A DNA stretch of 7,717 nt. Source: Allobaculum fili. GTDB taxonomy: Bacteria > Bacillota_I > Bacilli_A > Erysipelotrichales > Erysipelotrichaceae. A program made the translations under genes and the position numbers. The first letter of the stretch is position 1. Each line of letters begins with the position of its first letter. The notes beneath the pieces were generated by a model that saw only the letters and a program-made list of their open reading frames with translations, ran no database searches and had not been told where the DNA came from. This document shows positions 1 through 7,717 of this stretch, in pieces. Where the stretch lies: the NCBI RefSeq assembly GCF_020969955.1, contig NZ_JAHDSX010000070.1:1-7717 (forward strand), read 5' to 3'.

Positions 1-36
1 CCGGATCCGAAGTATGAAGAAAACGATGAAGAATAA
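1..36 (+). CDS. 3' end of an ORF entering from the left (...PDPKYEENDEE*), product unknown; possibly the tail of an IS transposase or a duplicated gene
   Basis: Frame 1 is open from base 1 to TAA at 34-36, and the hairpin starts 5 nt after the stop. Only 11 codons are visible, so coding status is not demonstrable here. Confidence 0.3.
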   Translation, partial: PDPKYEENDEE

Positions 37-126
37 AAAATACGCCAAGCGGGATCTCGAAAGGGATCCCGTTTAGCGTATCTAATATTCAGTCTCGCGT
101 ATACCCGTCGATTGTTTGACACTTAC
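2..126. repeat. Left arm of a perfect 125-bp inverted repeat (partner 7593-7717). It may extend beyond the window edge.
   Basis: The reverse complement of 7593-7717 matches 2-126 at 125/125 positions by manual block-by-block check. Identity stops at 127 (a) vs 7592. By hand count the arm is 54/125 G+C (43%). Confidence 0.97.
35..80 (-). terminator. Intrinsic terminator inside the left repeat arm, functional on the minus strand (terminates transcription leaving the segment leftward)
   Basis: TACGCCAAGCGGGATCTC-GAAA-GGGATCCCGTTTAGCGTA (41-80) forms a roughly 18-bp stem with one C.A mismatch, two G.U wobbles and a GAAA tetraloop. On the minus strand it is followed by T6 (40-35). On the plus strand the downstream tract TCTAATATTC is poor. 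Confidence 0.7.
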
Positions 127-433
127 ATAAATACAATACGCGTGCCAATTTGGACAGATAAGCAACCAGTTAAGACCATTATGGAAAAGATGCAGGCGGC
201 AAGGCGGTATTTGAATCCGGCTGTGATAGGCTATAGCCATCCAAACCGATGAGCGAAGGCCAAAAAAGATGACTGCCATCAAGGAAGCTGGTCCAGAAGA
301 AGGATCCCTGATCTTTCCCTGACGTCTGATCCCACCTGCATTTGGCGATGCAAAGCGATCCTTGACAAGACTGAAATACCAGCCGGAAAATGATTCCCTT
401 CCAGGAATTCAAGGAAGCCTGCCATACGGTTAA

Positions 434-455
434 GGGCTCTTCGGAGCCCGTTTTT
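434..455 (+). terminator. Intrinsic terminator with a UUCG tetraloop and no intact upstream gene (orphan)
   Basis: GGGCTC-TTCG-GAGCCC (434-449) followed by G-TTTTT (450-455). Confidence 0.75.
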
Positions 456-561
456 CGAATTAAAGCGAATCGATCAGGGTAGCGAACAATTTGGAACGGC
501 CAGACGATCTGAACCGGTAGAAACCGTTCGCCTGCGATTCGCGGCAGAAAGGGGAAAAGCG

Positions 562-792
562 ATGACAAACAAACGCTGGATTTTGAATCTGGTCGTGATC
601 GCGGCAGCGCTGATCGGCATCGTCGCCAGTCTGTTTGCGTGGATGTACGCGGCCATCCCGGCCAGAACGGCACAGGCCATTCTGTTAGGGGTGACGATTG
701 CGGCCGTCCTGATTCTGGCCGGAATTAACTATGCGTACAGCGCGTACGGCAAACGCTTTCACAAAGTCTATCCCGACAGTCACAATCACTGA
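562..792 (+). CDS. Small (76 aa) two-transmembrane-helix protein, function unknown
   Basis: ATG 562 lies 7 nt after the GGGG of AAAGGGGAAAAG. There are two roughly 23-aa hydrophobic spans (WILNLVVIAAALIGIVASLFAWMYAAI and AILLGVTIAAVLILAGINYAY) and a polar C-terminal tail. Its own terminator follows at 832-857. No family recognised. Confidence 0.6.
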   Translation: MTNKRWILNLVVIAAALIGIVASLFAWMYAAIPARTAQAILLGVTIAAVLILAGINYAYSAYGKRFHKVYPDSHNH

Positions 793-831
793 CGGATTAA
801 CCGGATTTAACCAGGTTTAAAGGAAACAAAG

Positions 832-857
832 AGACGCCCCTGCGGCGTCTTTTCTTT
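832..857 (+). terminator. Intrinsic terminator after the small membrane protein gene
   Basis: AGACGCC-CCTGC-GGCGTCT (832-850) followed by TTTCTTT (851-857). Confidence 0.75.
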
Positions 858-1046
858 ACGTCTGGAACACGTTCGATCCACGCCTGGCAGAACAGAAGCA
901 AAGCAGCGCTCTCGTAAAGTGCAGGCGAAAAAGCGAAAGCCCGATGAATCACGATGGAAAAACGGAAACATGAAGAATCTGTCCGCATATGGGGAAAAGA
1001 GGGAAATTGGGCGCTTCTCTGGTCTCGTTGTATAGTTATAGCGGTG

Positions 1047-1835
1047 ATGAAGATGAAACCCTGTGATCCAATTGGCGTATTTGATTCCGGACTTGGCGGA
1101 CTGACCGTCGCGGCGCAGATTCGAAAGGAACTGCCCAATGAGACGGTTCTTTACTTTGGCGATTCCGCCCGCAATCCGTATGGGGAAAAGCCGCGTGAAG
1201 TCGTCGAGACGTATTCGATGGAAATTGTCGAAGCCTTTGCCAGACAGCACGTCAAAGCGGTGGTAATCGCCTGCAACACGGCGACCAGCGCTGCCGCCCC
1301 GCTGCTGCGCGAACACTTTGATTTCGACATTATTGGCATGGAACCGGCTCTCAAAGTCGCTGCCGATCTGAAAACCCCGTCGATCATTGCGGTCTGGGCC
1401 ACGAACCTGACGCTTCATCAGGAAAAGTTTGAGCGGCTCAAAAACCGTTTTCAAAGCGGCCATGAGATCATACGGGTACCATGTCCAGGACTCGTCCGGC
1501 TTGTGGAAGAAGACCGTCTGGACGATCTGGAGGCTGTCGACGCGGCGCTGAGAGACTATCTGGCGCAAAGCAGGAACGCAGAGTTTATCGTTCTAGGCTG
1601 TACGCACTTTCTGTTTTTCAAGCAGCGCCTGCAGCAGCTCGCCGGTCCGAACGTCAAAATTGTGGACGGAAATGAAGGAACGGTGCGCCATCTGAAGCAT
1701 CTTCTTGAAGAGAAGCATCTGCTCAATCCGGATTCTTCTCACAGGGAAGACAGGCTGCAGATCGACAATTCCGATCCGAGTCAGATTGACCTGTCCTGGA
1801 AACTGGTCCATCGAATGGAGGAAACGTATGAGTAA
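1047..1835 (+). CDS. murI: Glutamate racemase
   Basis: It has the MurI hallmarks: N-terminal IGVFDSGLGGLTV and both catalytic-Cys motifs, VVIACNTATSAA and VLGCTHFLFF. The ORF opens at 954, but the conserved family N-terminus begins at MKMKPCDPIGVFDSG, so ATG 1047 (or 1053) is preferred. No Shine-Dalgarno sequence precedes either start, so the start is uncertain. Confidence 0.88.
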   Translation: MKMKPCDPIGVFDSGLGGLTVAAQIRKELPNETVLYFGDSARNPYGEKPREVVETYSMEIVEAFARQHVKAVVIACNTATSAAAPLLREHFDFDIIGMEPALKVAADLKTPSIIAVWATNLTLHQEKFERLKNRFQSGHEIIRVPCPGLVRLVEEDRLDDLEAVDAALRDYLAQSRNAEFIVLGCTHFLFFKQRLQQLAGPNVKIVDGNEGTVRHLKHLLEEKHLLNPDSSHREDRLQIDNSDPSQIDLSWKLVHRMEETYE

Positions 1836-3255
1836 AAATAAAAACGCCTGGCTTGCCTGCGATGACAGGACGCTTGGCGAAATCATGACGTTTGCCCAAG
1901 GCTACATGAATTTTCTTTTCCTTGGAAAAACCGAACGCCGCTGCGTCAGGCAGGCGATTGCGCTTGCTGAAGGTTTCGGCTATCGCAACATTAACGAATA
2001 CGCCGAAAACGGCAAGAGCCTGAAGCCGCAGGACAGAGTCTATTTCAATATGATGGATAAAGCCGTTGTGCTCTTTCACATCGGCAGCGATCCGATCGCC
2101 AAAGGCATGAACATTGTCGGCGCGCACATCGACTCGCCCCGTCTCGATCTCAAGCAGCATCCGCTCTATGAGCAGGACGGCATCTGCCTGTTCGATACCC
2201 ATTACTATGGCGGCATTAAGAAATACCAGTGGACGACACTTCCGCTGGCGATGTATGGCGTGGTTGTTCTGAAGGACGGCACGCACATGGATATCGCCAT
2301 CGGCGATCATCCGGAAGACGAAGTGTTCTGTATTACCGATGTCCTGCCGCATCTTGGCAAGGATCAGGCCAGCAAGCCCACATCCAAAGCCATCGAAGGC
2401 GAAGCGCTGAACGTCATCGCCGGTTCCATTCCGCAAAAGGAAGACGGCGACGAAAAAGCTTCCGATCCAGTCAAGGCGAACATTTTGCGTCTGCTCAAGG
2501 ACCGCTACGGCATTGATGAAGATGACTTCATCAGTGCCGAACTCGAAGTCGTTCCGCAGGGCGAAGCCAGAACGTGCGGCCTCGATCGTTCCATGGTTTT
2601 AGGCTATGGACAGGATGACCGCGTCATGGCCTACACGGGTCTGATCGGCCAGCTCGAACTCGCGAACGAAACGCTCGAGCGTACCGCCGTATGCCTGCTT
2701 GTGGATAAGGAAGAAATCGGATCCGTCGGCGCGACGGGCATGCAGTCGCATTTCTTTGAAGACCAGGTGGCTGAAGTGCTCTCCTTACTGGGCGAGTACA
2801 GCGAACTGAACGTTCGCCGGGCTCTGCGTCATTCCACGATGCTTTCGTGCGATGTTTCCGCAGCTCATGATCCCAACGTACCGGAAGTTTCTTCCCCTAA
2901 CGGCAACGCCGCGCAGTTTGGATGCGGTATCGCGATTTCCAAGTACGTCGGTTCCGGCGGCAAGAGCCATTCCAACGACGCTCGTGCGGAATACATCGCC
3001 GCGCTGCGCAAACTGCTCGATGATCACGATGTCGTCTGGCAGACCGCGGAACTCGGCAAAGTCGACCAGGGCGGCGGCGGAACGATCGCCTACATTCTGG
3101 CCAACTACGGAATGGACGTCATCGACGCTGGCGTGGCGCTGATGTCCATGCATTCTCCGTTTGAACTGAGCTCCAAGGCGGATGTGTATGAAGCCTTTTG
3201 CTGCTGCAAGGTTTTCCTGCAGTACATGCGCGATCTGCAGGCCAATTCGCTTTAA
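1828..3255 (+). CDS. M18-family aminopeptidase (aspartyl/glutamyl-type aminopeptidase), 475 aa
   Basis: Evidence is the GAHIDSPRLDLK motif, the C-terminal SMHSPFELSSKADV motif and a size typical of M18. GGAGG at 1816-1820 lies 7 nt before ATG 1828. The start overlaps the murI stop by 8 nt (ATGAGTAA). The ORF-track start at 1705 is rejected because it lies inside murI. Confidence 0.85.
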   Translation: MSKNKNAWLACDDRTLGEIMTFAQGYMNFLFLGKTERRCVRQAIALAEGFGYRNINEYAENGKSLKPQDRVYFNMMDKAVVLFHIGSDPIAKGMNIVGAHIDSPRLDLKQHPLYEQDGICLFDTHYYGGIKKYQWTTLPLAMYGVVVLKDGTHMDIAIGDHPEDEVFCITDVLPHLGKDQASKPTSKAIEGEALNVIAGSIPQKEDGDEKASDPVKANILRLLKDRYGIDEDDFISAELEVVPQGEARTCGLDRSMVLGYGQDDRVMAYTGLIGQLELANETLERTAVCLLVDKEEIGSVGATGMQSHFFEDQVAEVLSLLGEYSELNVRRALRHSTMLSCDVSAAHDPNVPEVSSPNGNAAQFGCGIAISKYVGSGGKSHSNDARAEYIAALRKLLDDHDVVWQTAELGKVDQGGGGTIAYILANYGMDVIDAGVALMSMHSPFELSSKADVYEAFCCCKVFLQYMRDLQANSL

Positions 3256-3262
3256 GATTGAT

Positions 3263-3289
3263 TCCCCCGAAGATTCGGGGGATTTTTTT
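3263..3289 (+). terminator. Intrinsic terminator after the aminopeptidase gene
   Basis: TCCCCCGA-AGAT-TCGGGGGA (3263-3282) followed by T7 (3283-3289). Confidence 0.85.
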
Positions 3290-3397
3290 CGCTCTGTGGT
3301 TTCGGCCACTCCCTTTACGCTTTTTGACGAATTTCCAAAGACGTTTTGAAGGGAGAGGAAATATTGCGTATGGTGGAGGAAGCCAAGGAGAGCGAAT

Positions 3398-3862
3398 ATG
3401 AAATACTATGCAGCTTATGGAAGCAACCTCCATCTCGAACAGATGAAAGAACGATGCCCGAACGCGATCCCGATCGGAACCGCCCGTCTTGCAGACTGGA
3501 AGCTCGTCTTTAAAGGAGACAAGGGAGAGTTTTATCTCTCGATCGTCCCAAAGCAGGGGGCTTTTGCGGATGCGGGCATCTGGCAGGTGGACGCTCAGGA
3601 CGAAGCCGCGCTTGATGAATACGAGGAATATCCCGCGCTGTACAAAAAGTTCACGCTGGATTTGCCCGTCAGTTTTTTTGACGGACATCGCGAATCTCTT
3701 CCTGTGTTTCTTTACGCCATTCCCCTGGGCTTTGCGGATGGCAGGCCAGAAGAAGAGTACGTACAAATCTGCGAAGCGGGCTGTCACGACTTTAGTCTGG
3801 ATCCGGCGCCTTTGTTTGCGGCTCTGGAAAGGGTGCCGGCGCAGACCGGCCAGAAGTCCTGA
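3398..3862 (+). CDS. Gamma-glutamylcyclotransferase-like (GGCT/AIG2-like fold) protein, 154 aa
   Basis: The N-terminal YAAYGSNLHLEQMKERCP matches the YGSNL signature of the GGCT fold, and an acidic EYEEYPALY segment sits where the catalytic Glu is expected. AAGGAG at 3385-3390 lies 7 nt before the ATG. Confidence 0.75.
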   Translation: MKYYAAYGSNLHLEQMKERCPNAIPIGTARLADWKLVFKGDKGEFYLSIVPKQGAFADAGIWQVDAQDEAALDEYEEYPALYKKFTLDLPVSFFDGHRESLPVFLYAIPLGFADGRPEEEYVQICEAGCHDFSLDPAPLFAALERVPAQTGQKS

Positions 3863-3934
3863 GCCTGGAAAGGAAAGAAGATCCGACAGGGCAGCGTGGC
3901 CCGAACAGCAGCCCTGAACAGGAAACCAGACGAT

Positions 3935-3963
3935 CGCTCTGTATGAAACAGGGCGTTTTTTTT
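3935..3963 (+). terminator. Intrinsic terminator downstream of the GGCT-like gene
   Basis: CGCTCTGT-ATGAA-ACAGGGCG (3935-3955, one G.U pair) followed by T8 (3956-3963). Confidence 0.75.
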
Positions 3964-4036
3964 CAGGCGAAACGAAAAAACGAACACCGATGCAAATCTG
4001 ACCCAGATTGGCTGATTCGGCCCATTTCTGGCCGCA

Positions 4037-4045
4037 TGATATAAA
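4037..4045 (+). promoter_or_regulatory. Candidate extended -10 promoter element (TGaTATAAA) for the HD-HAD-thyA-folA unit
   Basis: TG at 4037-4038, one base, then TATAAA at 4040-4045. It lies downstream of the 3935-3963 terminator and about 75 nt upstream of ATG 4119. No convincing -35. A 7-bp hairpin, TGACGGA-TCG-TCCGTCA (4085-4101), sits in the putative 5' UTR. Confidence 0.3.
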
Positions 4046-4118
4046 ATAGGCATGCGCAAACCGGCGCAAGAAACAAAATCGGTTTGACGGATCGTCCGTC
4101 AGGAAGGGAAGAAGAACC

Positions 4119-4895
4119 ATGCGTGAAGAAGAGCGTTTTACTGAGTACGTGCAGAACTACAATCCGGAGGATTCACAGATTCGTCTGAAAATCATCCATA
4201 CGTGGAAAGTCGTTTCAGCCGCGGATCAGATTGCCGAAAATCTGAACCTGAGTGAAGAAGAAAAGAAGCTCGCCCATCTGGGAGCGCTGTTTCATGACAT
4301 CGGCCGCTTTGAACAGGTGCGCCGCTTTCATACGTTCATGGATGCGAAAAGCGTCGATCATGCCGCTTTAGGCGCTGAAATTCTCGCACAGGAAGATTTC
4401 TTAAACGAGCTGTCCAATCAGGAAAAAGAAATGGTCATTCAGGCCGTTTCCGTTCATAACAAGCTTTCCATTCCCGATATGGATACCGGCTTTCAGCGCG
4501 TTCTCGATCAGATTTTGCGGGACGCCGACAAAGTGGACATTTTCCGGGTCAGCGCAAAGGAAGATCCCATGGATACGACCGGCGCCCCTTTATCCGCTCT
4601 CAAAACGCAGACGATCACGCCCGCCGTTTACGAGGCGCTCGTCGAGGGACGAAGCGTTGATCGTTCGAGCCGGATTACCAATCTCGATTTCTGGATGTCC
4701 TTTCTCGGCTTCATTCCTGATCTGAACTTCCCAGTTTCGTGCCGTATCGTGCTGGAACAGGGATTCTGGCGTGAACAGCTGGACCGTATGGTCAATGAAC
4801 AGCTGGTCGAAGACGAAATGACAAGAGAACAGATCCAGACACTGCTTGACCTTTCCGCAAAGCGTCTGGAAGAAAAAGCCGCTCTCGCCGGTTAA
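4119..4895 (+). CDS. HD/HDIG-domain metal-dependent phosphohydrolase, 258 aa, substrate unknown
   Basis: The H...HD...H...D pattern is present: IIHTW, LGALFHDIGRFEQ (HDIG motif), DHAALGAEIL and LRDADKVDIF. A GGAAGGGAAG purine run precedes the ATG. Confidence 0.8.
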   Translation: MREEERFTEYVQNYNPEDSQIRLKIIHTWKVVSAADQIAENLNLSEEEKKLAHLGALFHDIGRFEQVRRFHTFMDAKSVDHAALGAEILAQEDFLNELSNQEKEMVIQAVSVHNKLSIPDMDTGFQRVLDQILRDADKVDIFRVSAKEDPMDTTGAPLSALKTQTITPAVYEALVEGRSVDRSSRITNLDFWMSFLGFIPDLNFPVSCRIVLEQGFWREQLDRMVNEQLVEDEMTREQIQTLLDLSAKRLEEKAALAG

Positions 4896-4998
4896 GCTTT
4901 ATAAATCCGAAAAACAAAACGGCTTTTCGAAAAGGCATATTCTGCGAAAAGCCCAGCGACAGATCAGGCGGCAAAGCGCCTGAAAAAGGAGGAGGCTT

Positions 4999-5979
4999 AT
5001 GAAACCCGTAACGCTGATTGCGGTCGATGTCGACGGCACGCTGCTCAATTCGCAAAAGAAGCTCGATGAGAAAACCCGTCAGGCCGTAAACCGCCTGAAA
5101 GAATACGGAATCCTGTTTGGGATTATTTCCGGACGCCCGGTCGAAAGCGGCGTCATTCTCAGCCGCCAGTGGGGCATTGAAAATTCGATCAGTTTTTTAG
5201 TCGGCATGAACGGCGGTGCCATTTACGATATGCGCACAAAAGAAAAACAGACCTTCGCGCATCTCGACGGCAAACTGGTCTGGCAGATCTGTGAAATTTT
5301 CCGGGAAATCCCCGGCATTCATTTTGAACCGATGATCGGCAACCGCCGCTATGTGGAATTTTCCACACCGGAAACGCTCGCCATTGCCGAGCAGTTTGGC
5401 GAAGAGGAAATTATTGTCGATCTCAAGGAGTTTCTGGAACATCACGATGTGGACAAGCTGGTCATTCGCAGCCGCGCCGAAGATCAGCCGCGCATTAAGG
5501 AAATCGCAGCAGCGCATCCGTTTGAAGGGGTAGTGAGCTTTCCCACCGCGGACGTTCTTTACGAATACGTCGATCCGAAAATCAATAAGGGATTCGGCCT
5601 GGACCGCATTTGCGAACATTATGGTCTGAACGAAGAAAACGTCATCGCTTTTGGCGATGAAAGCAACGATATTGAAATGCTTCAGAAAGCCGGAGTCGGC
5701 ATCGCGATGGGCAATGCCACGCCGCCGGTCAAGGCGATCGCGGATGTGGTTCTGCCCTGGACCAACGATGAACACGGCATTGCCCGCTATCTGGAACAGG
5801 ACGTTCTTCCAGAACAGACCGGCCGCCTCGAAGTGCTCCCGGCATCGACGTACACTTCGTTGCGCGCCCCAGAAATGCCGGCAAATCCAGAAGCCGATAC
5901 GCCTGCGCAGGGGAGGGAAACTGCCGCTGCAGGCGGCAAAGAAGAAAACCAGCAGAGAAAGGGGAAAGGGAATGTCTAA
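4999..5979 (+). CDS. Cof-type HAD-IIB phosphatase with a roughly 55-aa low-complexity C-terminal tail, 326 aa
   Basis: HAD motif I is IAVDVDGTLLN and motif IV region is FGDESNDIEMLQKAGVGIAMGNA, with a cap domain between them. GGAGGAGG precedes the ATG. The tail LPEQTGRLEVLPASTYTSLRAPEMPANPEADTPAQGRETAAAGGKEENQQRKGKGNV is not part of the HAD fold. Confidence 0.85.
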   Translation: MKPVTLIAVDVDGTLLNSQKKLDEKTRQAVNRLKEYGILFGIISGRPVESGVILSRQWGIENSISFLVGMNGGAIYDMRTKEKQTFAHLDGKLVWQICEIFREIPGIHFEPMIGNRRYVEFSTPETLAIAEQFGEEEIIVDLKEFLEHHDVDKLVIRSRAEDQPRIKEIAAAHPFEGVVSFPTADVLYEYVDPKINKGFGLDRICEHYGLNEENVIAFGDESNDIEMLQKAGVGIAMGNATPPVKAIADVVLPWTNDEHGIARYLEQDVLPEQTGRLEVLPASTYTSLRAPEMPANPEADTPAQGRETAAAGGKEENQQRKGKGNV

Positions 5980-6844
5980 ATGGGATGAAATTTACTGCGG
6001 CCTTTGCGAGACGATTCTCAGCGAAGGAACGATCGTTTCCAACCGTACAGGCGTGGATACGAAAAAAATTCCGTTTGCCCACTTCACGCTGAATGTCGGC
6101 GAAGAATTTCCGATCCTGACCGTCAAGCAGCTGTTTTTACGGCAGGCGGTTCTGGAAATGTTATGGATTTATCAGGCGCAGAGCAACGATGTGCGCTGGC
6201 TTCAGGAGCGCAATGTGCACATCTGGGACGAATGGGAAATCGATGAAAACGGCGACTGGCTGGAAGTAAATACCGGCCGGGTGCTCAAGCATTTCGATCC
6301 GTCCATGGCGCATACGATCGGTACGGCGTACGGCTACATCGTTCGCAAGTACCATCTGATCGACAAGCTGATCGATTCGCTTAAAAACCATCCGGAAGAC
6401 CGGCGCCGGGTCATGTCTTTATGGCAGGATGCGGAACTCGATACGGCGGTTCTGCCCAGCTGCGTCTGGAGCAGCGAATGGGACATTACCGATGGAACGC
6501 TTAATGTACTCGTCCATCAGCGCTCGTGCGACGTCGGTCTGGGTCTGCCGTTTAACGTTACGCAGTATGCGGTACTGATGTGCATGATGGCTCAGGTGTG
6601 CGGACTGAAAGTCGGACGCCTGGACTGGTCGATTAAGGACGCGCACATTTACGTCAATCAGCTCGAGCAGATGCAGGAACTTCTGCAGCGCTGGCACACG
6701 AATGAGCCGCTGCCGGCACCGAAGCTCTGGCTCAACCCGGAAGTGAAAAACTTTTACGACTTTGACAGTTCGAAAGAACTGAAGGACGTGCATCTGGAAG
6801 GGTATCAGCACATGGGAAAACTGCGGATGCCCATTACCCAGTGA
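5972..6844 (+). CDS. thyA: Thymidylate synthase (ThyA type), 290 aa
   Basis: The catalytic Cys lies in LPSCVWSSEW. HQRSCDVGLGLPFNVTQYAVL matches the ThyA core, including the dUMP-specifying Asn of PFN. The C-terminal LWLNPEVKNFYDF resembles my recollection of Bacillus subtilis ThyA. ATG 5972 follows GGGGAAAGGG and overlaps the HAD stop by 8 nt. The ORF-track start at 5651 is rejected. Confidence 0.92.
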   Translation: MSKWDEIYCGLCETILSEGTIVSNRTGVDTKKIPFAHFTLNVGEEFPILTVKQLFLRQAVLEMLWIYQAQSNDVRWLQERNVHIWDEWEIDENGDWLEVNTGRVLKHFDPSMAHTIGTAYGYIVRKYHLIDKLIDSLKNHPEDRRRVMSLWQDAELDTAVLPSCVWSSEWDITDGTLNVLVHQRSCDVGLGLPFNVTQYAVLMCMMAQVCGLKVGRLDWSIKDAHIYVNQLEQMQELLQRWHTNEPLPAPKLWLNPEVKNFYDFDSSKELKDVHLEGYQHMGKLRMPITQ

Positions 6845-7407
6845 TCCGCCTTGACGCCATCGCCGCAGTGGGCAGAAACGGCGAAATCGGCTGGAAGGGC
6901 GATATGCCCTGGAAGCGCGGCCTTAAACAGGATCTGAAGTTTTTCCGTAAGGTGACAATGAAGCGCCCGGTCATCATGGGCTGCAACACGTGGAAGTCGC
7001 TGCCTGGACTGCTTCCCGGCCGTCTTCATCTTGTGCTCACGTCCCATGAAATCAATCGCGAAGGCGTGCTGACCTTTTCCACAGTCGAAGACTGCCTGAA
7101 GTGGCTGGACGCGTATAAAAAGCAGAATGTACATGTACCCGAATCCATAGCACTGGATCACGGTACGGTATTTGAACAGCCTGACGCTTTTGTGATTGGC
7201 GGGGCTTCGATTTATCGCGCCTTTCTGCCGTACTGTTCGCGCCTGATCCTGACGGAAATCGATGCGGACTTTGAAGCCGACACGTATTTTCCGGATTTTG
7301 ATCGAAACCAGTATTCCCGCCAGGTTCTCGATGAACAGGAAGACGGCAGCTATCACACCCGTCATGTGGTGTGGATGCGAACGACAGATCCTGCAGGCGA
7401 AGAATAA
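6841..7407 (+). CDS. folA: Dihydrofolate reductase, long form (188 aa)
   Basis: DHFR motifs are present: IAAVGRNGEIGWKGDMPW, DLKFFRKVT, PVIMGCNTWKSLPGLLPGR, FVIGGASIYRAF and LILTEIDADFEADTYFPDF. The GTG start overlaps the thyA stop (GTGA, 6841-6844). Confidence 0.88.
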   Translation: MIRLDAIAAVGRNGEIGWKGDMPWKRGLKQDLKFFRKVTMKRPVIMGCNTWKSLPGLLPGRLHLVLTSHEINREGVLTFSTVEDCLKWLDAYKKQNVHVPESIALDHGTVFEQPDAFVIGGASIYRAFLPYCSRLILTEIDADFEADTYFPDFDRNQYSRQVLDEQEDGSYHTRHVVWMRTTDPAGEE

Positions 7408-7499
7408 GAAGCGCCGGAAAACCAGTCGGGGAAATCCGGATCGAGAATCTCGAACCGGATGATGCAAAGCCCGATGTTTAAACTTAAGAAATGCATGCA

Positions 7500-7547
7500 A
7501 AAGGCTGCCTTCCTTCGAAGAAACCTCTTCGTCGTAAGGCAGCCTTT
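7500..7547. terminator. Long compound hairpin downstream of folA, a probable bidirectional terminator
   Basis: AAAGGCTGCCTT (7500-7511) pairs with AAGGCAGCCTTT (7536-7547), with an inner CGAAGA/TCTTCG stem. The plus-strand tail GTGTGTT is weak. The minus-strand tail TTTTGCATGCATTTCTT is better. Confidence 0.55.
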
Positions 7548-7574
7548 GTGTGTTGAATCGATTTTAGAATCGGG

Positions 7575-7603
7575 TTTATAGAACGTTCAGAAGTAAGTGT
7601 CAA
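7575..7603 (-). promoter_or_regulatory. Candidate hybrid sigma70-type promoter reading inward (minus strand) from the right repeat arm
   Basis: On the minus strand, TTGACA (7603-7598, inside the repeat) is followed by a 17-nt spacer and TATAAA (7580-7575, in unique DNA). The equivalent TTGACA in the left arm (116-121) has no -10 at a usable spacing. Confidence 0.35.
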
Positions 7604-7638
7604 ACAATCGACGGGTATACGCGAGACTGAATATTAGA

Positions 7639-7684
7639 TACGCTAAACGGGATCCCTTTCGAGATCCCGCTTGGCGTATTTTTT
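7639..7684 (+). terminator. Intrinsic terminator inside the right repeat arm, functional on the plus strand (terminates transcription leaving the segment rightward)
   Basis: TACGCTAAACGGGATCCC-TTTC-GAGATCCCGCTTGGCGTA (7639-7678) followed by T6 (7679-7684) and ATTCTT. Confidence 0.75.
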
Positions 7685-7717
7685 ATTCTTCATCGTTTTC
7701 TTCATACTTCGGATCCG
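7683..7717 (-). CDS. Mirror copy of the same ORF 3' end, reading inward on the minus strand
   Basis: Identical sequence by virtue of the inverted repeat, with the stop codon at 7685-7683 on the minus strand. Confidence 0.3.
   Translation of the reverse strand, partial: DPKYEENDEE

Follow-up and report, generated by a model that had tools for sequence, protein, structure and literature searches.

How did a block of housekeeping genes come to lie between two perfect inverted repeats that run to the very edges of the sequence that contains it? Within the window, by which we mean the whole stretch of 7,717 nucleotides that was analysed, a repeat search returned positions 2-126 and 7593-7717 as arms of 125 nt that are 100% complementary and lie 7,466 nt apart, whereas the runner-up inverted pair measures only 29-30 nt at 70-79%; the arm pair, which the initial annotation had already described as exact reverse complements (125/125), is thus far beyond chance. 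We consider it highly probable (roughly 0.93) that each arm is the inner end of one of two separately inserted, full-length copies of an IS66-family insertion sequence (IS), and that these copies happen to stand on either side of a block that never moved. This answer draws on the demonstrated identity and full extent of the IS, its target duplications, its empty sites in conspecific strains and its multi-copy status.

What, then, are the arms made of? They correspond to the final 125-126 nt of a 2,484-bp IS of the IS66 family, where the C-terminus of its transposase TnpC is followed by a small hairpin and then by the right terminal inverted repeat GTAAGTGTCAAAC. Base 1 belongs to the repeat as well, given that window positions 1-126 match the second IS copy in the closed chromosome described below at 100%. 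This makes the left arm 126 nt long; the figure of 125 is fixed solely by the right window edge, and the arms stop at about 125 nt because the window stops there. The features at the two edges are as follows:

1-126, plus strand: right (IRR) end of the left IS66-family copy, identical (100%) to nt 2359-2484 of the complete element at 7083-9566 of the closed chromosome
1-36, plus strand: TnpC tail in the left arm, the last 11 codons and the stop, translating to PDPKYEENDEE*
51-70, plus strand: hairpin with a 6-bp stem, left arm
101-126, plus strand: 26-bp terminal inverted repeat of the left arm (reverse complement GTAAGTGTCAAACAATCGACGGGTAT)
127-134, no strand: 8-bp target-site duplication made by the left IS, inner of the two copies, ATAAATAC
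7585-7592, no strand: 8-bp target-site duplication made by the right IS, inner of the two copies, GTTCAGAA
7593-7717, minus strand: IRR end of the right IS66-family copy, inverted; exact reverse complement of 2-126 and a 100% match to 17013-17137 of the closed chromosome
7593-7618, minus strand: terminal inverted repeat of the right arm, followed by the hairpin
7683-7717, minus strand: TnpC C-terminal codons in the right arm, the same tail by exact complementarity

The decisive context comes from CP078088.1 (contig L008), the closed long-read chromosome of Allobaculum sp. Allo2, which the window matches from end to end at 99.7%, the differences being 20 single-base homopolymer deletions in the chromosome and one SNP. 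With a single SNP in 7.7 kb, this chromosome was taken to represent the lineage of the window, and everything beyond the window edges was read from it. The outward extension that the initial annotation had proposed finds identity continuing to 2,484-2,487 bp and an open reading frame (ORF) that encodes an IS66 transposase, so that the arms are, as suspected, the inner parts of longer repeats. Full IS copies flank the block on both sides, at 7083-9566 (plus strand) and 17013-19497 (minus strand); they are 99.84% identical, their transposase genes read inward, and positions 17013-17137 form the inner end of the second copy. The ORF tails that had been noticed pointing inward at both edges are likewise accounted for, since the 11 codons of the window are identical to the C-terminus of a 219-aa TnpC fragment of the same chromosome (ending in ...GPDPKYEENDEE).

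To which family does this element belong? It encodes TnpB (128 aa) and TnpC (613 aa). The intact TnpC (contig L013, 4480-6321) matches PF03050 with 203.5 bits (cut-off 23.1) and NF033517 with 261.6 bits (cut-off 180), and TnpB matches PF05717 with 101.3 bits and NF033819 with 87.4 bits (cut-off 50), the 128-aa ORF being named IS66 family TnpB by NCBI. The 219-aa fragment matches PF03050 and PF13817, of which the latter is sub-threshold and the exception among IS protein matches that otherwise exceed the curated cut-offs. The terminal inverted repeats (left GTAAGCGTCAAATAAAAGACGGGTAT, right GTAAGTGTCAAACAATCGACGGGTAT) agree at 22 of 26 positions, start with GTAAGCG/GTAAGTG and are invariant across the full-length copies examined (n=14); perfect 8-bp direct repeats flank 13 of these 14, both copies at the present locus included. 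IS66-family elements have terminal inverted repeats of about 20-30 bp that start with GTAAGCG, and the family, including IS66 and IS679, is said to be the subject of work by Machida in 1984, Han and colleagues in 2001 and Gourbeyre and colleagues in 2010. The Allobaculum element thus resembles IS66 and IS679 in its DDE transposase TnpC with accessory TnpB, in its ends, in its 8-bp target duplications and in its length of about 2.5 kb, but differs from them in having no separate tnpA/orf1. The canonical tnpA-tnpB-tnpC layout is indeed absent here, as the left terminus (L013, 3925) lies only 76 nt from the tnpB start (4001), with no third ORF called. This layout is common in the family yet not obligatory, and subgroups such as ISBst12 lack the three-ORF arrangement; we have therefore treated the missing tnpA as a layout variant and not as a ground for exclusion. 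Judged by its sequence, the element is an IS66-family insertion sequence, and an 8-bp duplication is the reported footprint of that family (PMC6778807).

Did the two copies arrive together or separately? In the closed chromosome, the left IS carries ATAAATAC at either end and the right IS carries GTTCAGAA at either end, each a perfect 8-bp duplication. Nine contigs from other samples are collinear with window positions 123-7593 at about 99.8% identity and contain no IS; both insertion sites are empty in them and the outer neighbours are those of CP078088.1, namely a histidine-kinase gene on one side and the 114-aa/PFK neighbours on the other. In one of these IS-free contigs (L003), the left site reads ...AATGTTA-ATAAATAC-AATACG... 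and the right site ...AGAAC-GTTCAGAA-GGATATG..., with the octamer in single copy in both cases. The synteny comparison with relatives that had been called for accordingly finds the block kept in place with the IS absent, and no other context for the block was seen among the 24 contigs examined. A separate 8-bp duplication for each IS, together with the empty sites in the IS-free contigs, points to two independent and recent insertions. The block between them consists of the following:

135-7584, plus strand: native chromosomal block, annotated from Pfam matches and ORFs, with IS-free gene order and flanks kept in L001, L003-L007 and L009-L012 at about 99.8% identity
562-792, plus strand: 76-aa membrane ORF
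954-1835, plus strand: murI-like racemase (Pfam)
1828-3255, plus strand: M18 aminopeptidase (Pfam)
3398-3862, plus strand: GGACT/AIG2-like protein (Pfam)
4119-4895, plus strand: HD-domain protein (Pfam)
4999-5979, plus strand: Cof-type HAD hydrolase (Pfam)
5972-6844, plus strand: thyA (Pfam)
6841-7407, plus strand: folA (Pfam)
7500-7547: terminator-like hairpin

As first described, all eight genes share the plus strand, and a Pfam search of the eight interior proteins gave no match to a transposase, integrase or invertase family. An Rfam search over the whole window returned nothing at gathering thresholds, a permissive Rfam scan of positions 1-1000 gave only a chance-level match, and a tRNA search of the window found none. 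Both IS sites are intergenic: the left one lies about 80 nt downstream of the histidine-kinase gene, with the 76-aa ORF starting 436 nt further on, and the right one 186 nt downstream of folA.

The copy-number check suggested for the repeat shows it to be multi-copy, with at least six IS copies located in Allo2; the four further copies there have perfect duplications and arms identical to those of the window. One 1.1-Mb contig of GCA_965643355.1 holds TnpB in at least 10 places (eight full-length copies), with perfect duplications at seven of the eight intact copies, and the terminal 126 nt are identical in 11 of the 12 other IS copies examined. This IS has expanded recently and its copies are all nearly identical, which is why the two arms agree perfectly. 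The earlier suggestion that perfect identity implies recent duplication or gene conversion holds trivially, as the mark of a recent IS burst. The index lists TnpB on 649 contigs, mostly 2-5 kb long, a pattern typical of collapsed repeats, and more inward-facing inverted pairs of this IS occur (L020/L021 and L023). All its closest relatives come from Allobaculum and gut metagenomes. The 31-nt right-end repeat had 0 exact matches in the GTDB representative genomes scanned, a protein-seeded scan of the same genomes with the 613-aa TnpC gave no confirmed relative, and a metagenome scan with the 31-nt repeat hit one contig only (L023). In a plasmid collection, the TnpC protein matched only generic IS66 transposases, from which this long (613 aa) TnpC differs widely (about 25-31% identity). 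A literature search found no account of genome or IS content for Allobaculum Allo2 or A. mucilyticum. To judge by its polymorphic sites and intact duplications, the IS is probably active in transposition in the species.

The following sequence of events most probably accounts for all this. In an Allobaculum strain of the Allo2 lineage, a gut bacterium, two IS copies inserted separately and in opposite orientations into two intergenic sites, probably by sequential and independent transposition events, while the 7.5-kb block between them has stayed in place and, in the closed genome, is also unflipped. Because the sites are intergenic, the insertions may well have been selectively near-neutral. 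The part of the initial annotation that took the arms for the inner ends of two inverted IS copies with transposase genes reading inward was correct, the family being IS66, and the finding is genuine, if ordinary.

Could the two IS copies nevertheless act on the block that they enclose? As inverted copies they offer a substrate for RecA-dependent inversion, and the 7.5-kb block might exist in both orientations in the population, which we regard as possible in principle but improbable. The geometry is suitable, with 2.48 kb of 99.8% identical inverted homology merely 7.5 kb apart, and an IS copy elsewhere with mismatched flanks (contig L016) shows that recombination between IS copies takes place in this lineage. 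Homologous recombination between IS66 copies is also documented in Agrobacterium, where it generated an IS66-mediated deletion in pAt15955 (PMC6778807). As in that case, long and near-identical IS66-family copies lie close together here, and the target-duplication bookkeeping of that study (PMC6778807) is the test that was applied to the present locus. It comes out differently: each of the two copies still has matching duplications, which implies that no recombination between the IS pair has taken place in the closed genome, and the inverted orientation would in any case yield an inversion and not a deletion. The sole closed genome shows the native orientation, and the swapped pattern appears in no contig; the window and the short-read contigs are uninformative on this point, because the inner junctions look the same whether or not a crossover has taken place inside the IS, so that the orientation of the block cannot be read from them. 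No dedicated invertase or recombinase is found among the eight interior proteins, and the flanking genes are IS66 tnpB/tnpC only. Of the earlier proposal that a duplicated chromosomal gene end allows the block to invert, inversion stands as conceivable but unobserved, with native orientation in the one closed genome; the duplicated gene end is rejected because the ORF tail belongs to TnpC.

Much less probable still is that the IS66 pair constitutes a functional composite transposon that moves the murI...thyA-folA block as a unit. Tn5 (IS50) and Tn10 (IS10) are composite transposons bounded by inverted IS copies, and Tn4003 of Staphylococcus carries thyE-dfrA flanked by IS257. The present locus shares with them two IS copies bracketing a gene block, nearly identical (99.84%), inverted and with intact ends, and with Tn4003 also the chance presence of a thymidylate synthase-dihydrofolate reductase pair; the polymorphic sites of the IS, moreover, speak for its activity. 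However, the outer-left flank (ATAAATAC) and the outer-right flank (GTTCAGAA) differ, each pairing with the inner flank of its own IS, and the cargo consists of core housekeeping genes that occupy their ancestral, native position, with the histidine-kinase neighbour on one side and the 114-aa/PFK neighbours on the other, as in nine IS-free contigs from conspecific strains. With no copy of the block elsewhere among the 24 contigs examined, no DNA match of the IS in 72,556 plasmids and no sign that the unit ever moved, the Tn5/Tn10-style unit of the initial annotation falls, the target-duplication and synteny tests ruling out a transposed composite. It is just as improbable that the inward-facing pair is a nascent composite transposon that could mobilise thyA-folA and murI out of Allobaculum, or, in a milder version, flip the block at the population level; if true, it would be a live first step toward a mobile trimethoprim-resistance cassette, paralleling the path from IS257/thyE-dfrA to Tn4003.

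The least probable reading makes the terminal inverted repeat an artefact of assembly (a hairpin or chimeric contig, or a wrongly attached unresolved repeat). It gains some colour from arms that reach both window edges at nearly equal length (126 and 125 nt), as an assembler leaves them at a collapsed repeat. A k-mer signature of the assembler was also considered as the reason for the arm length of 125-126 nt, but was not adopted. The artefact reading fails because an independent closed long-read chromosome holds both junctions and both full IS copies, and because the junctions fall exactly at the IS termini with canonical 8-bp duplications; all that survives of the earlier suspicion is that the arms are truncated where the window or contig ends.

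With two independent IS66-family insertions as the explanation, what does the locus mean? It is a fully explained case of a strain-specific IS66-family burst in Allobaculum, a bacterium of the human and rodent gut, and its significance beyond bookkeeping is slight. Short-read assemblies are broken by this IS, and the short inverted contig termini that result can be mistaken for signatures of transposons or invertible segments. Such IS pairs recur in Allobaculum genomes, where they could serve as substrates for inversion or deletion and are to be expected in strain-level comparisons.

The perfect inverted repeat reported in the initial annotation holds up: its arms (2-126 and 7593-7717; 125 nt, 100% complementary, spacing 7,466 nt) end where the window edges cut them, and the second-best inverted pair within the window is about 30 nt long at 70-79%. 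Window base 1 also lies within the repeated element, so that the arms measure 126 nt (left) and 125 nt (right). The inward-reading ORF tail proposed at the left edge is likewise present (window 1-36 translates to PDPKYEENDEE*), and the eight interior genes all point the same way, as had been claimed, lying on the + strand with no recombinase-family match among them.

Interior ORFs of the window
+ strand, 76-aa membrane ORF
+ strand, murI-type racemase
+ strand, M18 aminopeptidase
+ strand, GGACT/AIG2-like protein
+ strand, HD-domain protein
+ strand, Cof-type HAD hydrolase
+ strand, thymidylate synthase
+ strand, dihydrofolate reductase

Searches of the window for tRNAs and Rfam families found none. 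The 436-nt non-coding stretch 5' of the membrane ORF (window 127-561), which has a promoter-like site at 362-391 and, at 434-449, a GC hairpin with a T-run, gave no Rfam match and is conserved at ~99.8% across IS-free contigs. Overlaps of consecutive genes, by 8 nt for murI/M18 peptidase (1828-1835) and HAD hydrolase/thyA (5972-5979) and by 4 nt for thyA/folA (6841-6844), suggest translational coupling inside the block. The dihydrofolate reductase is long, at 188 aa vs a 159-position Pfam model.

Looking up the window proteins in public assemblies led to a closed chromosome, CP078088.1 (locus L008), whose organism is named Allobaculum sp. Allo2 in a source record. It aligns with the window end to end at 99.7% identity, the differences being 20 single-base homopolymer deletions on the chromosome side and one SNP (window 5369, C vs T). 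The pattern is that of long-read errors, which makes the chromosome in effect a member of the window's lineage and a legitimate extension of the window. Homopolymer errors in the record also fragment the murI, M18 peptidase, HD and folA calls and the transposase genes. On this chromosome the repeat runs outward to 2,484-2,487 bp, with 99.84% identity between copies, bearing out the suggestion that the arms are the inner parts of longer repeats.

IS copies on CP078088.1, from repeat extension
7083-9566, + strand, left IS copy
17013-19497, - strand, right IS copy

Both copies encode a 128-aa TnpB (PF05717, NF033819) and an IS66-type DDE transposase, TnpC (PF03050, NF033517; the PF13817 match is sub-threshold), the latter frameshifted on this chromosome; other copies have it intact (613 aa). 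The element has GTAAGCGTCAAATAAAAGACGGGTAT and GTAAGTGTCAAACAATCGACGGGTAT as its termini, and a GTAAGCG-type end is reportedly an IS66 family hallmark. The window arms thus correspond to the last 125-126 nt at the right-hand end of the IS and contain the C-terminus of TnpC, a small hairpin and the right terminal repeat. Every family feature tested for (transposase, TnpB, terminal repeats, 8-bp duplication) was present, and NCBI already annotates the element as IS66 family. Unlike the tnpA-bearing layout, it has no separate tnpA, a known IS66 variation. As its transposase shares only 25-31% identity with IS66 transposases from plasmids, and the IS was found neither in GTDB representative genomes nor in a plasmid collection, it is a lineage-restricted member.

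Multi-copy status and recent expansion of the IS account for the perfect identity of the arms. Four further CP078088.1 copies (about 1.02, 1.90, 2.32 and 2.62 Mb) are each bounded by a perfect 8-bp duplication and match the window arm exactly at their right ends. TnpB occurs in at least 10 places on a 1.1-Mb contig of GCA_965643355.1, eight being full-length copies at 99.6-99.8% identity, with perfect duplications in seven of the eight and, again in seven, no mismatch between right end and window arm. In the index, 649 contigs carry the TnpB sequence; most are 2-5 kb long, as is usual where short-read assembly has collapsed an IS. Elsewhere, an IS66 copy (L022 3925-8228) is interrupted near nt 2345-2350 by ~1.8 kb with HTH_Tnp_2 and rve genes (IS3-family-like), a nested insertion, and a further partial copy lies at L022 1-1686; another copy (L019 3925-4654), truncated after ~726 nt, has VapE-like, VRR-NUC and SNF2 genes directly after it and HicAB and RhuM on its upstream side, and appears to abut, or to be cut by, an element resembling a phage or island.

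How did the two copies come to bracket the block? The left IS lies between two copies of ATAAATAC and the right IS between two of GTTCAGAA; duplication of 8 bp is what has been reported for IS66, and whether duplications are matched or swapped is the accepted criterion for IS-IS recombination (PMC6778807). Other samples provided nine contigs (L001, L003-L007, L009-L012) that are ~99.8% identical to window 123-7593 and have the same outer neighbours (upstream, a response regulator and histidine kinase; downstream, a 114-aa ORF and phosphofructokinase), and they are without the IS, each 8-mer being single-copy at both sites. With both duplications matched, the block collinear and the sites empty in conspecifics, the pattern indicates two independent insertions into intergenic DNA. 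At its start (1-53), L012 (ERZ28638245 scaffold_504) carries the final 53 nt of the IS; the site, which lies upstream of the response-regulator gene by ~240 nt, is empty in the other contigs, so that this is a further strain-specific insertion and site polymorphism. An inward-facing inverted pair of the same IS recurs on contig CBFFOQ010007006.1 (L020 and L021, both 3925-6411; about 743,990-751,249), 2,286 bp apart around an M15 peptidase gene and rplS, each copy with its own duplication (TCTTCTTA and GCCGCAGA); the window architecture therefore recurs by chance in IS-rich Allobaculum genomes. A third close pair is on human gut metagenome contig OYYK01005149.1 (L023), where a 656-bp spacer, unrelated to the other loci compared, separates a full copy (358-2844) from an inverted IS right end (3501-3547) at the contig edge.

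Homologous inversion of the block between the two copies is physically plausible, as the pair offers 2.5 kb of inverted sequence, 99.8% identical, at a distance of 7.5 kb. Moreover, a full copy elsewhere (L016 3917-6419; contig CBFFOQ010007006.1 of GCA_965643355.1, about 350.7-353.2 kb) has non-matching 8-bp flanks (TTCGCTAA left, GAAAAAAC right), whereas the other seven intact copies on the contig have perfect duplications; these flanks are the mark left by an earlier recombination between IS copies (inversion or deletion) or by an adjacent deletion. However, no inverted allele was seen, and the block is not inverted in the closed genome. Block orientation is unreadable from the window or short-read contigs, since crossing over within the IS would not alter any inner junction. 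The proposal of a duplicated chromosomal gene end allowing inversion thus keeps its physical plausibility and loses its origin, the arms being IS ends.

The independent insertions also bear on the proposed composite unit, which was right about the IS identity and orientation of the arms and is not supported as a mobile entity, failing both the target-duplication and the context test: the duplication and synteny pattern indicates no transposition of the block as one unit, and the likeness to composite transposons is one of geometry only. The thyA-folA pair recalls Tn4003, yet nothing indicates mobility of the block. Assembly artefact is ruled out by both junctions in the independent closed genome, only the truncation of the arms being technical. 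The inverted repeat is genuine, a known mechanism accounts for it in full, and its interest is low.
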